A program made the translations under genes and the position numbers. Positions 12,385-55,364 of a stretch of 59,531 nucleotides of DNA are shown here, one piece after another; the stretch's first letter is position 1, and every line of letters starts with the position of its first letter. The DNA is from Malassezia furfur (Eukaryota), in assembly GCA_052055015.1 (NCBI GenBank), contig JBQJIT010000022.1. One strand, written 5' to 3'. The notes beneath the pieces are model-generated. The model was given only the letters and a program-made list of their open reading frames with translations. It ran no database searches and was not told the origin of the DNA.

Positions 12385-12999
12385 ATGTCGCATTACTCGG
12401 CGGTTGCCAAGGCGCGATCACGGCGTGTGCCGTCGTCCAGTGGGCTGCTGAGCACGCCCAGTTATACCGGAACGCGCGCGCCTGCGCCGCCGCACGCGGA
12501 GCTCAGTGAGGACCAGCGTGCCGAAATCCAGGAAGCCTTCGAGTTGTTCGACACGGACAAGGACGGCGCGATTGACTACCACGAGCTCAAGGTAGCGATG
12601 CGCGCACTTGGGTTTGACCTCAAGAAGCCCGAGCTGCTCAAGATCCTGCGCGAAAACGACGCGAGTGGGTCAGGACTGATGGAGTGGAAGGACTTTGAGC
12701 GGATCTGTACGTGGCGCGCCACTTACCCCTAGTGACGGAGCGCATTCTCTCGCGCGATCCCAGAGAAGAGATTCGGCGCGCATTTGCGCTGTTTGACGAC
12801 GACGGCACGGGCAAGATTAGCCTGCGCAACCTGAAACGCGTCGCGAAAGAGCTCGGAGAGAACCTGGACGACGAGGAACTGTGCGTAACTATGAGCCGTA
12901 TACTTATGCAGCCAAGCTATGATTGACGAGTTTGACCTGGACCAGGACGGCGAGATTAATGCAAGCGAATTTGAGCAAATCATGATGGACGAACCGTGA
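12385..12999 (+). CDS. CDC31: Centrin
   Basis: [53 protein letters not shown] and [13 protein letters not shown]. Introns 12707-12732 and 12881-12911. Confidence 0.95.
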
Positions 13000-13068: not shown

Positions 13069-13434
13069 ATGGCCGGCGGACGCAACCAGTACTATGAGTT
13101 CTACCGGCAGAGCAGGTAGGTTGTTGTGCGCTTACATGGCATCGGGATGCAGCTCACGGATGCGCTCGACGAACTGATCCAGTCGGGCCACATCAACCCG
13201 ATCCTCGCCATGAAGGTGTTGGAGCAGTTCGACAAGTCGATCTCGGAGACGCTTGCGACGCAGGTTAAGTCGAAGGGCAACGTCAAGGGTCACCTGCACA
13301 ACTACCGCCTGTGTGACGAGGTGTGGACGTTTATCGTGAAAGATGCCATGTTTAAGCTGGACAACGGCGAGACGCTCCCGGTGGACCGCGTCAAAATTGT
13401 GGCGTGCAAGCTGGGCGAGAACAACACGCGGTAG
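13069..13434 (+). CDS. TOA2: Transcription initiation factor IIA gamma (small) subunit
   Basis: YYEFYRQS|SIGMQLTDALDELI...LEQFDKS...YRLCDEVWTF...KIVAC. Requires removal of 13116-13139, which ends in GG rather than AG. Confidence 0.93.
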
Positions 13435-13475: not shown

Positions 13476-15559
13476 CTATGTTTGTTGCTGCTGCGACACC
13501 GTCGCTTGGTTCAGGCCCGTAAACATGTCAGAAAAGGGGGTAGAGTCCGATGCGGGGAGCAGGCCGATGGTGGCGTCGTTCCCCGTGACACTCGCGGATA
13601 CAGCCATGGAGTCCATCGGCACTGAGAAAGCCACGTCGCTCTTTTTGAGCGGTGCCCCGGTGGGAGCGTTCGCAGACTGCGTCAGCGCCGCAAAGATGGG
13701 CGTCTGGGGATGAGAGGCAGGAAGAGAGGCAGGAAGCAATGTGTGCGAAAGGATCGCATCGAGCGTTTTGGGATCGTAGTCAGGACGGTTGGGCGGCAGC
13801 GCCATGGGCGCCGCGGGTGGGCGCGCGAGGTAGTCGCCCGGCAGCGGCACAGCCGGATTTGGTGCAGCGTTCACCGCCGTGGCCGGCAGCAGTGGCGCGC
13901 CCGGCGCGGTAGTGGGCACCGTCTGCAAGTCCGGCACAGGGGCCGGCTTGCGCACACCCGGTCGTACGTCGGCGGTGGCGGCCGCAGCGGCCAGCACCAC
14001 TGAGTGCGGCACGCCGTCGACCGTCTGGGGCGCATAGGCAGGAGCCGCGTCTGCCGGTGTGCTCTGCGGGAGGTTGGCCAGGACGCCCGCAAGCCGGTTG
14101 CTCTGCGATGGCGGTTCCAGCGCACTGACCTCGTCCTGCAGCGCTGGGCGTTTGTGCGCACGGCGGTGCACCCCCGGACGGGAGCCGCCTCCACTTCCGC
14201 GACTGGGCGGGACCATGTTGGGGTCGCCCGTGGGCTCGACCGTGACGACGGTGCCGTCCTTGGCGCGCTTGCGTTTGTTCGACAAGGAACGCGCATAGCG
14301 CAGGCCACATGCATTGCAAAGCTGGGTCAGTGGGTGCGACGTACGGTTTTGTGCCCAGATGGACCGCGCCGCCATTCGGGGCTGTTGCTTTTCCCGCAGC
14401 TCGAGCACGACTTGGTGGGCGCTGCGCCCGTGGCTGCGGTTGCGAGAGATGCGACGTTGTTGTGCGCCGATGGGCTTGCATCCGCTTTGGTCGACTGTGC
14501 GTGCGGCAACGAAGACTGCGCCTGCGCAGACTCGACCGGGACCGCCGCATGCGTCTCCGACTTCCACTCACTCTCGCTTAACGTGCACTGGCCGTTGGCA
14601 GCAGAGCCGTTTTGGTCGGCGAGCTTGGCCCGCTGCGGCGCCGCAGCGCCCTTGCTCGGCTCGGAGCTGGGCCGATCGCTCGTCACCTCGAAGCACGCAA
14701 GCACGATCGACCCGTACGGAATGAGCACGCTCGAGATGGTACGTACGCGTCCCGACGCCGTGAGTGTATGCGACGCACGGAACCGCTGCGTACAGCTCGT
14801 CGTGCCGCCTGCCCCTGCCGCGGGGCCTGCATGGATGCCCTGGACGAGCCGTGCAAAGTCCTCCGCGTGGTAGGCATCTGACTCGTGCTTGCCCTGCACG
14901 GCCTCAGGCGGAGGCCAGCTGAGTAGGATCTGGCGTTGCGGCGCATTGCCGAGCACCTCGAACACGTAGTGCAGCGGGCGCGTCAAGTGTTCCTGACTCG
15001 CGGCGTACAGCTGGCGCCACAGCTGCTGCGACTGTGCTGCGTCGAATGCGTGCGTAGTGTTTCCACAGTGCGTAGACGACGGCGCATCCGACGTCGAGAT
15101 CGTGTGGAAGAAGCACAGCGCGAGTCGGTCGCCGACCATGTTGACTACCACGTCGGTCGGCTTATACTCGGCGGCCACATCTGTGGCGCGCGGCGCGCTG
15201 CTGAGCATGCGTTGTATGTGAGCCGTGCTTGCATATCGGCACCGTGTCACGCTGCCAAACAGCGTGCGGCTCTGCACGATGCGCGCCAAGTCGCTCCGTG
15301 CATGCGCACGTTCGTCGGCGTGCACAAAGTCGGTAAACTGGCGCCCGAGGATCGCATGTGCCACGGATCCGAGCTCGCGCTGGGCGTCGGGGTCCACGTA
15401 CACAAACTTGAGCTGGCCCTGTGTCGCCTCCGACGCGTCTTGCTCGGTCGGCCTCGAGAGCAGCGCCCAGAAGCAGCGGGACACGTCACCTTCGCTCGAC
15501 GGCTGTGCGCCGCTGCTCGGCGCCAACACCGACGACTCGTCAGTCCCCTCGGCCTTCAT
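13476..15559 (-). CDS. PAS-like domain + GATA zinc-finger transcription factor
   Basis: PAS-like FVYVDP...ILGRQFTDFVHADE. A 23-nt intron at 14322-14344 completes CSSCGKSNSPEWRRGPSGHKT|LCNACGLRY. First in-frame ATG is at 15559. Confidence 0.85.
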
Positions 15560-16394: not shown

Positions 16395-17268
16395 CTACAA
16401 CAACTCCACACGCCGCTGCTGCAGAAAGGCGCGGATGTCGCGGTATTGGAGGAGATGAATAGTGCCTTGCGCAAGCTGCGCCGTCTCGTCGCTGGGTGAG
16501 TGTGGGCCGCACGTACTTGGGCAGCGGCAGTGCGCCGCAGTCTTCGCGGCAATAAACAAATACGGGTGCGCTCAGGTTCGGTGCCGTCACTGGGTCAGCA
16601 TTAGCACCTACCCATCCCGCCTGGAGCATTGCTGGACGCCGCACCAGGGGCTGCATCGTCCAGGCCACGCATTGGCTCCGGAAGAAACTGGAGCACGGTA
16701 CTTTGGAAATGGTCCGTATTCAGTTGGTGGAATCTGGGTGAGCCAGGCCGACGTACCGGCGCGCATAGCCCAACTCGATGTCACTCAGCCGCTGCTGCTC
16801 CGACCGATGCGACATGATATATGCAGCGTACGTTTCAATCTGGATCAGACCAACACGTACCTTGGCAAGCCGAGAGCGCAGATAGTTGCGGAGAAGCCAC
16901 TTGGCCCGCTCCACGTCGAGCTGCACCAAATTGAGCCGGAAATGCTCCTCCTCGGACGTAGATGCGTCGGAAGCAAGCGAGTCGAGGATCGACTGCTGCT
17001 GTGCAATCTGATCCATGACTTCTTCCACCATGGATGCATTCCACGGCTGCACCTCGGGGGAGCCGCGCTCGTCGAGCCACGCGTGCGCCAGGCGCACAAT
17101 GCTCGATCGGGTCTCGCCGAGAGGCTCCTCCTTGATGTCCAGACCAAGCGGGAGCGCCTCGGGGCTCGACCGCGTGTTTTCCTTGATCGACGCATATGAC
17201 GACGATGGTTGTGTGGGACGAGGCACCTCGTCCTCGTCATCGGACAGCGCATAGCGTGCATGCGACAT
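16395..17268 (-). CDS. SLD5: GINS complex subunit Sld5, 5 exons
   Basis: AWLDERGSPEVQP, DVERAKWLLRNYLRSRLAK|IE and PNLSAPVFV. Introns 16840-16860, 16734-16756, 16590-16611 and 16492-16516. Confidence 0.88.
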
Positions 17269-22916: not shown

Positions 22917-23927
22917 ATGTCCCCAGACGCCGCATCCTGGACGCCGGAGCGGTTCTATCGGGAGTATGAGGCGCCGGCCGGCTACGATGGTCACATGGAG
23001 CATGTGCGCGAATTCGTAAAGCACAGCAAGCAGATGGGGCGCAAGGTGGTGCTTATCACCGTACGTGGTCGGAGCTTACGCAGAGCGGAGGAACCACCGT
23101 GCCGCTGGAGCGCAACGTGTATGTGGATCGTCTGACGCAGGGTGCGCTTCCTGGACAACTTCTCGGCAGGGACGCGCGGTGCTGCATCGGCTGAATATTT
23201 CCTGGCCGCGGGCTACGCGGTGATATTCCTGAGCCGGCAGCACAGTCAATTTCCCTACACGCGCCGCTACAGTCACACAACCAACCCCTTCTTTGACATT
23301 TTGCAGGAGCCAGAGAGTTCCGACGGCGTGCAAGAAGTGCGTGTGCAGGAGCACCAGGTCGGGACGCTACTTCCCGTGCTCCACGCCTACCATCAGGCAC
23401 GCCAGGCGGGGTGTCTGCTGCCGGTGCCGTTCGTGACGGTGGTCGAATATCTGTTCCTCCTGCGGGGTATCAGCGAAGCGATGCAGCCGCTCGGTCGGAA
23501 TGCGATGCACTACCTGGCAGCCGCAGTGAGCGACTTCTTCATTCCTTTGGATGACATGGCGGAGCACAAGATTCAGTCCGGTGACGGCGCACTGCACCTT
23601 ACCCTCGAGCCCGTGCCCAAGGTGCTTGGGGACCTCGTGCAGGACTGGGCGCCGGCGTCATACGTGATCAGCTTCAAGCTGGAGACCGACCAAAAGCTGA
23701 TCGTGCCGAAGGCAGAGAAGTCGCTCGAGCGGTACGGGCACCAACTTGTGATTGGCAACGAGCTGTCCACGCGGAAAACCGAGGTGACCCTGGTGGAGCG
23801 TGCGTCGGACGGAGGATATACGACGACGCCGCTTCGCATCCCCGCGGACGCGCCGCATGAGATTGAGCAAGACATCATTACAGCACTAACGGACCGGCAT
23901 GCGCGCTGGGTCCATGCATCCTCATAG
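22917..23927 (+). CDS. CAB2: Phosphopantothenate-cysteine ligase
   Basis: VLIT|SGGTTVPLERN|VRFLDNFSAGTRGAASAEYF, YLAAAVSDFF, HKIQS and SFKLETD. Introns 23061-23083 and 23119-23140. Confidence 0.93.
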
Positions 23928-46844: not shown

Positions 46845-47096
46845 ATGGCGTTCCTCGGCTTCCGTGCTTACCCTACCCCCATCCTGAAGCCCCTGTGGCC
46901 GTTCTTTGCCTCGTCGGCCATTGTGTACTACCTGCTTGCCAAGATCCAGTACTCCGGTGTGCGCTCGCCTGAGTTCGCCAAGGACCCGAAGAACCCGTAC
47001 GGTACGTTAGCCGCCCGCGGAAAGAACAAGTACTGACGCTGGGGCCAACGGGCCACTTGACGTGCAGCCAAGCAGATTGCGAAGGAGCAACACTAA
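46845..47096 (+). CDS. ATP18: Mitochondrial ATP synthase subunit j
   Basis: YPTPILKPLWPFF...EFAKDPKNP. A 66-nt intron at 47002-47067 gives ...YAKQIAKEQH*. Confidence 0.9.
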
Positions 47097-47694
47097 GCGG
47101 CGGTAATGATTCACATGCTGCGCGCTCCTCCGTAGACGCTCAATGGAACTACGGAAAACGTCATTACGGACGACGCACATGCGTGCGTACGCTCGACCTA
47201 GCAATGTCCCTTTGTCTGCCCCGCCTGTCTATGGGTCATGGGTGCCACATACACCTCGTGCGGCACTCGGTGCCGCCCGCCGTCAGAATAAGACATAGCC
47301 TGCCTCGGTGGGCGACGTTCCAAGTCACCTACACACGGCCCAGTGTCGCCCCGGCTACCCTACGGTGGCAGCCCTTTGCACATCTAACCTGCCATAGCTA
47401 CGTCTGCATATGCCGTGCGGCATGCAGCGCCGCGCGGGCGGCTTCACCCGCCCAGCGCGCACACCAGGGTGCCTGCCCGTCCGTATCGCCGCTGCCGTGC
47501 CCTTCCTATCACGTGATCTCCGGTCCGCTGCGAACCGAAGGCACCGTGCGAGCCCCGCAGGCGCTGACAAGATTATGAGCGCAGCGAATCGCATGCGAGA
47601 ATTTACCCCATGAAGCAGCCGGACGTGTGGGATACATGCGCGGAGCCGGAGGCTTCTTACCAACTATCGTCACGTCTTCCGAGCACAACCAACG

Positions 47695-54586: not shown

Positions 54587-55364
<778 letters not shown>

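Follow-up and report, generated by a model that had tools for sequence, protein, structure and literature searches.

The first intron of the TFIIA-gamma gene (TOA2) of Malassezia furfur appears to end in GG, at a site where the orthologous introns end in AG. The gene is encoded at 13069-13434 on the plus strand of a 59,531-nt stretch of contig JBQJIT010000022.1 (assembly GCA_052055015.1), the whole of which is called the window in what follows; its features are collected in Table 1. From comparison of sequences we hold the chances to be evenly balanced that the 24-nt insert in this gene is a genuine, species-wide GT-GG intron, spliced at its GG. An acceptor of this kind, defined by its branch point, was one of the options offered in an earlier note on this DNA; it is compatible with all the observations below and is the one we favour, because the geometry of the insert is the modal one for the window, because residues encoded by exon 1 are invariant, and because GT-GG introns have been published elsewhere. 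The note had also thought of a regulatory splice, and nothing supports such a role.

Table 1. Features of the TOA2 gene and its candidate first intron (window coordinates)
Feature	Coordinates	Strand	Description
Exon 1	13069..13115	+	ATG at 13069; peptide MAGGRNQYYEFYRQS + AG, the first two bases of a split Ser codon
Exon 1 3′ end	13115	+	..CAGAGCAG
Candidate phase-2 intron, GT..GG	13116..13139	+	24 nt, GTAGGTTGTTGTGCGCTTACATGG; the sole GT-started deletion giving the ortholog junction
5′ splice site	13116..13121	+	GTAGGT; the hexamer also opens other compact intron candidates in the window
In-frame stop	13117..13119	+	TAG, directly after AGG in the frame; closes the unspliced reading frame after 16 codons
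Branch-site motif	13131..13135	+	CTTAC; branch A 13134, 5 nt before the intron end
GG in the 3′ splice-site slot	13138..13139	+	AG in orthologous introns; the intron ends TGG (13137-13139)
Exon 2	13140..13434	+	begins CATCGGGATGCAG; C of the Ser codon, then IGMQLTDALDEL ... NNTR; stop TAG 13432-13434
Met opening the public 95-aa model	13147..13149	+	ATG in sequence
Next AG downstream	13151..13152	+	18 nt past branch A
Junction peptide of the predicted spliced product			YYEFYRQSSIGMQ; around the junction FYR/QSSIGMQLTDALDELIQSGH...

The identity of the gene is clear from exon 2. It matches Pfam families PF02751 (5.3e-23) and PF02268 (1.2e-17, by itself covering profile positions 10-47 of 47), and the solved human and yeast TFIIA-gamma/Toa2 chains in the PDB (best E 9e-24). 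The product belongs to the TFIIA gamma/Toa2 family, with its N-terminal helical and C-terminal beta-barrel domains. Since the PF02268 match starts at profile position 10, the beginning of the helical domain is absent from exon 2, and positions 1-9 are supplied only when exon 1 is joined. The exon-1 peptide is identical to the N-terminus of a Malassezia obtusa protein (P0153) and aligns without gaps to YYELYRRS of yeast Toa2 and YQLYRNT of the human protein. Five residues (E10, Y12, R13, S15 and S16) are invariant among 28 proteins from fungi and plants; the first four come from exon 1 and S16 is created by the exon junction. The N-terminal junction motif is common to smuts, rusts, Mucoromycota, ascomycetes and plants. 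Downstream, the coding sequence is undamaged and shares 97% identity with its counterparts in M. psittaci and M. obtusa. TOA2 is an essential gene in yeast (PMC10716077). Exon 1 looks indispensable, judging from the invariant residues, the Pfam domain left partial without it, the essentiality of the yeast gene and the intact state of the exon itself. An AlphaFold2 model of the M. obtusa ortholog, built from a 28-row alignment, has a mean pLDDT of 68, with residues 1-13 below 50, and is silent on what the exon-1 peptide does in this obligate heterodimer.

The sequence and coordinates of the insert, its GTAGGT donor, CTTAC motif, in-frame TAG and TGG end, all given in the earlier note, were borne out when the sequence was read again. 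We enumerated 80 in-frame, stop-free deletions that start with GT, and 13116-13139 alone recreates YRQSSIGMQ. Deletion of 13115-13138 gives the same mRNA (G13115 = G13139) but the deleted segment would neither begin with GT nor end with AG. There are 20 frame-preserving candidates of the GT-AG, GC-AG or AT-AC kind, and with none of them is the conserved N-terminus preserved; all either begin directly after the ATG or remove conserved residues. The sole AT-AC candidate among them (13094-13135) was rejected, as it deletes EFYRQSS. Introns of the minor, U12 type have AT-AC or GT-AG ends and an extended, rigid donor and branch consensus; the GTAGGT donor and CTTAC branch motif here are of the U2 kind, and a U12-type intron was rejected. 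Measured against a canonical U2-type GT-AG intron, the insert has the donor and the branch distance and lacks the YAG 3′ end. It agrees with a non-canonical U2-type GT-GG intron in that GG stands at the orthologous AG position and removal restores the conserved frame. Joining the donor at 13116 to the AG at 13151-13152 would make a 37-nt intron that shifts the frame and reaches a stop after 23 codons, so that the next AG is out of frame, as the note had stated.

How usual is the rest of this intron? A motif census was taken on both strands of the window, with GT[AG]NGT followed within 3-25 nt by CTNA[CT]. There are 59 matches, against 23 expected from mononucleotide shuffles. Past the branch A, the first AG to appear has its last base at +5 in 27 of the 59 and at +6 in another 10 (2.6 are expected by chance for the two positions together), and an AG lies within 11 nt of the branch A in 48. 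In a few matches the first AG is 11-19 nt past it. Typical compact intron candidates measure 22-26 nt, which fits the mean intron size of 30 bp published for M. sympodialis (PMC5389616). The TOA2 GG fills the modal +4/+5 slot and is the only GG found there among the 59 matches. In all respects but one base, the sequence of the TOA2 intron is thus of the commonest architecture of this genome. The note's statement that every other intron here ends in AG is borne out in part, by these 48 matches; the check by eye was limited to two introns, those of the neighbouring centrin gene, which were compared with the Cdc31 parts of fused ortholog models (P0123, P0151). Seven matches have no AG within 30 nt; two of these regions were read and neither made a case for an intron. 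An ORF-bridging test, with the 16 terminal dinucleotides as the null, did not discriminate, AG (32/84) doing no better than GC (35/94), since the window, with 64% G+C, has long open frames in all frames.

The same intron is old and is well represented in other fungi, Malassezia among them. The junction ..YYEFYRQSSIG(M/I)QLTDALDEL.. is annotated in 12 named species. A scan of metagenome contigs yielded at least 80 fungal TOA2 loci, of which 62 could be scored, both exon edges having been located by two peptide patterns. Among the matches listed, an intron is present at the TOA2 site in 54 of the 62 and absent in eight, and all 54 are in the identical place and phase, inside the Ser codon after YR-x-S. 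These comprise 47 distinct introns of 31-205 nt (median 57), again among the matches listed. Aligning TOA2 intron ends across Malassezia, a check that the earlier note had proposed, gave ..TAG at the four loci concerned: two M. sympodialis-like loci (L001, L002) end in ..ATTATTAG|C, and two loci of a more distant Malassezia-like form (L003, L014) in ..AATAG|T. Among the fungal matches listed, 46 of the 47 distinct introns are GT-AG and one (L069) is GT-CG. The latter (L069:1085-1188) begins GTTCTT and ends ..GTACCG, and its close relative L050 ends ..GTACAG; the CG may be a further acceptor without AG at this intron, or else it reflects a sequencing error at low coverage. The metagenome matches listed include no DNA from the clade of the window species itself, and scans of bacterial and archaeal genomes and of viral contigs found no relative.

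Prokaryote-style ORF calls in the protein collection cross the tail of the intron, and serve as a second record of its last bases. In other Malassezia these read-through ORFs have, before IG, the residues ..LTHS, ..HIIS, ..HSIS, ..MIS, ..TNFS, ..FSYS, ..LTNS and ..HMIS; the constant Ser is consistent with AG plus the first base of exon 2. In the window species the ORF reads ..RLHG|IGMQ, i.e. GG plus C (Gly = GGC, with G at 13138). The ancestral state of the TOA2 intron-1 acceptor, as read from these sequences, is AG. Some lineages differ in their introns. Uninterrupted 112-aa TOA2 proteins near that of M. cuniculi (P0010, P0146) are prokaryote-style calls on genomic-size contigs of up to 22.9 kb, and suggest that an M. 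cuniculi-like lineage lost intron 1; in that lineage a second TOA2 intron is found further on (P0142, P0145).

The G at 13138 is reproducible. The exact read-through protein (..RLHGIGMQ, P0001) is encoded by 53 contigs in Logan and ENA. LHG is also read in two variants that each have one other substitution (P0121, P0122), and no LHS (AG) form is present in the P0001 cluster, of which all three members were read. The note had raised a single A>G assembly error, and these records disfavour it. That the sequence was misread at 13138, or that the G is a private mutation of one strain, now seems very improbable, even though a canonical intron is just one base away. A strain allele that forces use of the Met at 13147 was likewise considered there. 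The strain-specific part of that idea does not seem to hold, as the AG-to-GG change at the conserved acceptor looks species-wide in the sequences collected; the use of Met 13147 agrees with a public 95-aa model that starts there (P0150).

GT-GG introns form a rare but known class, and the TOA2 insert fits its sequence criteria. In fungi, combinations other than GT-AG, GC-AG and AT-AC make up approximately 0.26% of annotated introns (PMC7072748). One of their commoner forms in the curated annotation of the basidiomycete Ganoderma lingzhi is GT-GG, with 38 introns listed, 0.041% of the total (PMC11590231). It is also among the non-canonical types of Fusarium graminearum, where non-canonical sites in seven genes were borne out by Sanger sequencing (PMC3577648). 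One intron of BANP, GT-GG in human and in nearly every vertebrate, is GT-AG in fishes (Parada et al. 2014, PMC4176328). Like these, the TOA2 insert has a normal GT donor and U2-like signals, and as in BANP its GG stands exactly at the AG position of its relatives. It differs in that the BANP, Fusarium and Ganoderma junctions were seen in RNA, whereas the TOA2 case is known here from DNA and protein sequence. It measures only 24 nt and its branch A lies 5 nt before the 3′ end, which is far tighter than we would expect those introns to be, and unlike them it sits in a gene that is essential in yeast. What makes it interesting is how very near the branch point lies to the 3′ end, and that its host gene is an essential one. 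Compared with intron 1 of TOA2 in other Malassezia and other fungi, position, phase and flanking protein sequence are the same; the contrast is between 24 nt with GG in the window and, among the matches listed, 31-205 nt with AG in 46 of 47. A non-exhaustive search of the literature on Malassezia introns and splicing found no report of a GG acceptor in the genus.

The same AG-to-GG change is found in yeast reporters mutated at position -2 (PMC12707134) and in a human disease allele, SLC26A4 c.919-2A>G. Those alleles are experimental or deleterious, whereas the TOA2 allele appears to be fixed in a free-living species. In yeast, the A at -2 is thought to pair with the branch adenosine and non-YAG sites are poorly used; Prp22 proofreading rejects them and favours the next site (PMC12707134). 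By the same rule the choice here would fall on the out-of-frame AG at 13152, which counts against splicing at GG. The near-universal AG of the other compact introns counts against it as well, since it indicates that the identity of the dinucleotide matters and not branch distance alone.

We propose the following for TOA2. An A-to-G change would have become fixed at position -2 of the 3′ splice site of a conserved first intron whose other parts stayed intact: the GTAGGT donor, the CTTAC motif and a last base 5 nt past the branch A, at the usual spacing. The spliceosome presumably still ligates 13115|13140, making this a U2-type GT-GG intron, probably with a lower splicing efficiency than an intron that ends in AG. 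Translation would then yield the full 113-aa protein with its invariant N-terminal motif, and the public 95-aa model from Met 13147 would be a workaround by gene finders that accept canonical sites only. A further step, that exon ligation in the ultra-compact introns of this lineage (about 22-26 nt, branch A fixed 5 nt from the end) is placed by a branch-point ruler and not by reading of AG, so that GG is the constitutive acceptor of an essential gene, strikes us as doubtful; were it true, TOA2 would be an example from nature of a 3′ splice site chosen largely without regard to AG.

The main rival to GT-GG splicing is a dead acceptor with a shortened protein, which we consider possible but on balance unlikely. 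The intron would be retained, or transcripts would start past exon 1, and the functional product would be the 95-aa protein that starts at Met 13147, a codon to which ribosomes would come by reinitiation after a 16-codon uORF or from an internal start site. The NCBI and UniRef model of the species is indeed this protein (P0150, also in nr and on 75 contigs), which we read as the window-encoded one from the ‘-’ it carries for accession and name. Moreover, in unspliced RNA the 24-nt intron with its one TAG leaves a short uORF that ends 27 nt before the in-frame Met, yeast 3′ splice sites mutated at -2 are poor substrates (PMC12707134), and an allele fixed with no AG form in sight must be tolerated somehow. 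Yet such a protein would be without the five residues shared invariantly by fungal and plant proteins and without at least the first nine positions of the Pfam helical domain. The unspliced mRNA is also poorly suited to initiation at Met 13147, since three ATGs precede it: 13069, in frame and in good context with G at -3 and G at +4, and 13094 and 13136, both out of frame with ORFs that, as read from the sequence, extend beyond Met 13147. Donor, branch site and exon 1 show no decay, which speaks against a dead acceptor, although a recent change would leave them equally intact. The spliced 113-aa form of the window species is absent from a collection of 5.8 billion protein clusters, which holds only its 95-aa form and a 102-aa unspliced form; it was not among the best hits, nor in the two clusters with the nearest 113-aa representatives, all of whose members were read (4/4 and 13/13). 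As evidence against splicing this absence is weak, since other Malassezia with an intron at this site likewise showed no spliced form from a run-assembly source.

Two other outcomes would leave the GG unused. The spliceosome might skip it and take the AG at 13151-13152, as in the yeast model of leaky scanning to the next site once a poor one is rejected (PMC12707134), and the few window matches with a first AG at 11-19 nt hint that longer spacings may be usable. The mRNA would then be frameshifted and TOA2 a hypomorph or pseudogene, the cell relying on a second copy or allele. This we regard as quite improbable: it would leave a 23-codon ORF as the product of a gene essential in yeast, the protein collection shows no second copy and all forms of the species in it derive from this one sequence, a search for longer forms found no fusions of the window species, and the coding sequence downstream is as well preserved as described above. 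Stop-codon read-through is normally a small fraction of translation. Retention of the intron with read-through of its TAG, giving a 121-aa protein with an 8-residue insert, is for that reason, and because the insert would split invariant residues, scarcely credible, for all that the insert is a multiple of three with a single stop and that a M. vespertilionis model (P0147) keeps its intron in frame.

If GG is the acceptor, TOA2 provides a natural experiment on the choice of the second-step site with a branch point 5 nt away, and a conserved, easily assayed substrate for -2 tolerance outside budding yeast. The public 95-aa TFIIA-gamma model would then be wrong at its N-terminus, and introns of this kind would be missed by pipelines that filter on canonical dinucleotides, as the M. 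sympodialis annotation pipeline did (PMC5389616). If GG is not spliced, a free-living fungus gets by on a small TFIIA subunit from which residues invariant in fungi and plants are missing, which would be informative on TFIIA. Whichever holds, this is a curiosity of one gene and does not amount to a new system.

For three other species, too, a public TOA2 model appears to be mistaken at this intron (P0005, P0129 and P0147). The M. caprae model (100 aa) and one M. pachydermatis model (108 aa) begin inside the intron, and the M. vespertilionis model P0147 (123 aa) retains a stop-free intron of 30 nt. No longer forms or fusions of TOA2 from the window species were found in the protein collection. 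In M. equina (P0123) and M. vespertilionis (P0151) TOA2 is fused with centrin in one public model. The upstream centrin/CDC31-like gene of the window ends with TGA at 12997-12999, only 69 nt from the TOA2 ATG, and the fused models are probably an annotation artefact of such tight spacing.

On the other side, a minus-strand gene (13476-14567) converges on the 3′ end of TOA2 and is interrupted by a 23-nt intron (14322-14344), upstream of which its ORF contains a CNACGLRY motif, which we take to be GATA-zinc-finger-like; a Pfam search with the ORF part at 13479-14321 returned no family. The window abounds in introns of 21-26 nt that share one rigid design: GTANGT, approximately 8-12 nt, CTNAC and NYAG, so that only 5 nt separate the branch A from the 3′ end. 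Examples are 23119-23140 (+), 14322-14344 (-) and 16590-16611 (-). In a minus-strand candidate that starts at 55002 the branch A is just 3 nt from the end (..GCTTACAG).

A second GG-ending candidate, at 47002-47042, was rejected, as the gene there uses a normal 66-nt GT-AG intron (47002-47067). This small plus-strand gene (46846-47097) encodes a protein of approximately 63 aa (MAFLGFRAYPTPILKPLW..), and its intron contains an upstream decoy branch motif followed by TGG.
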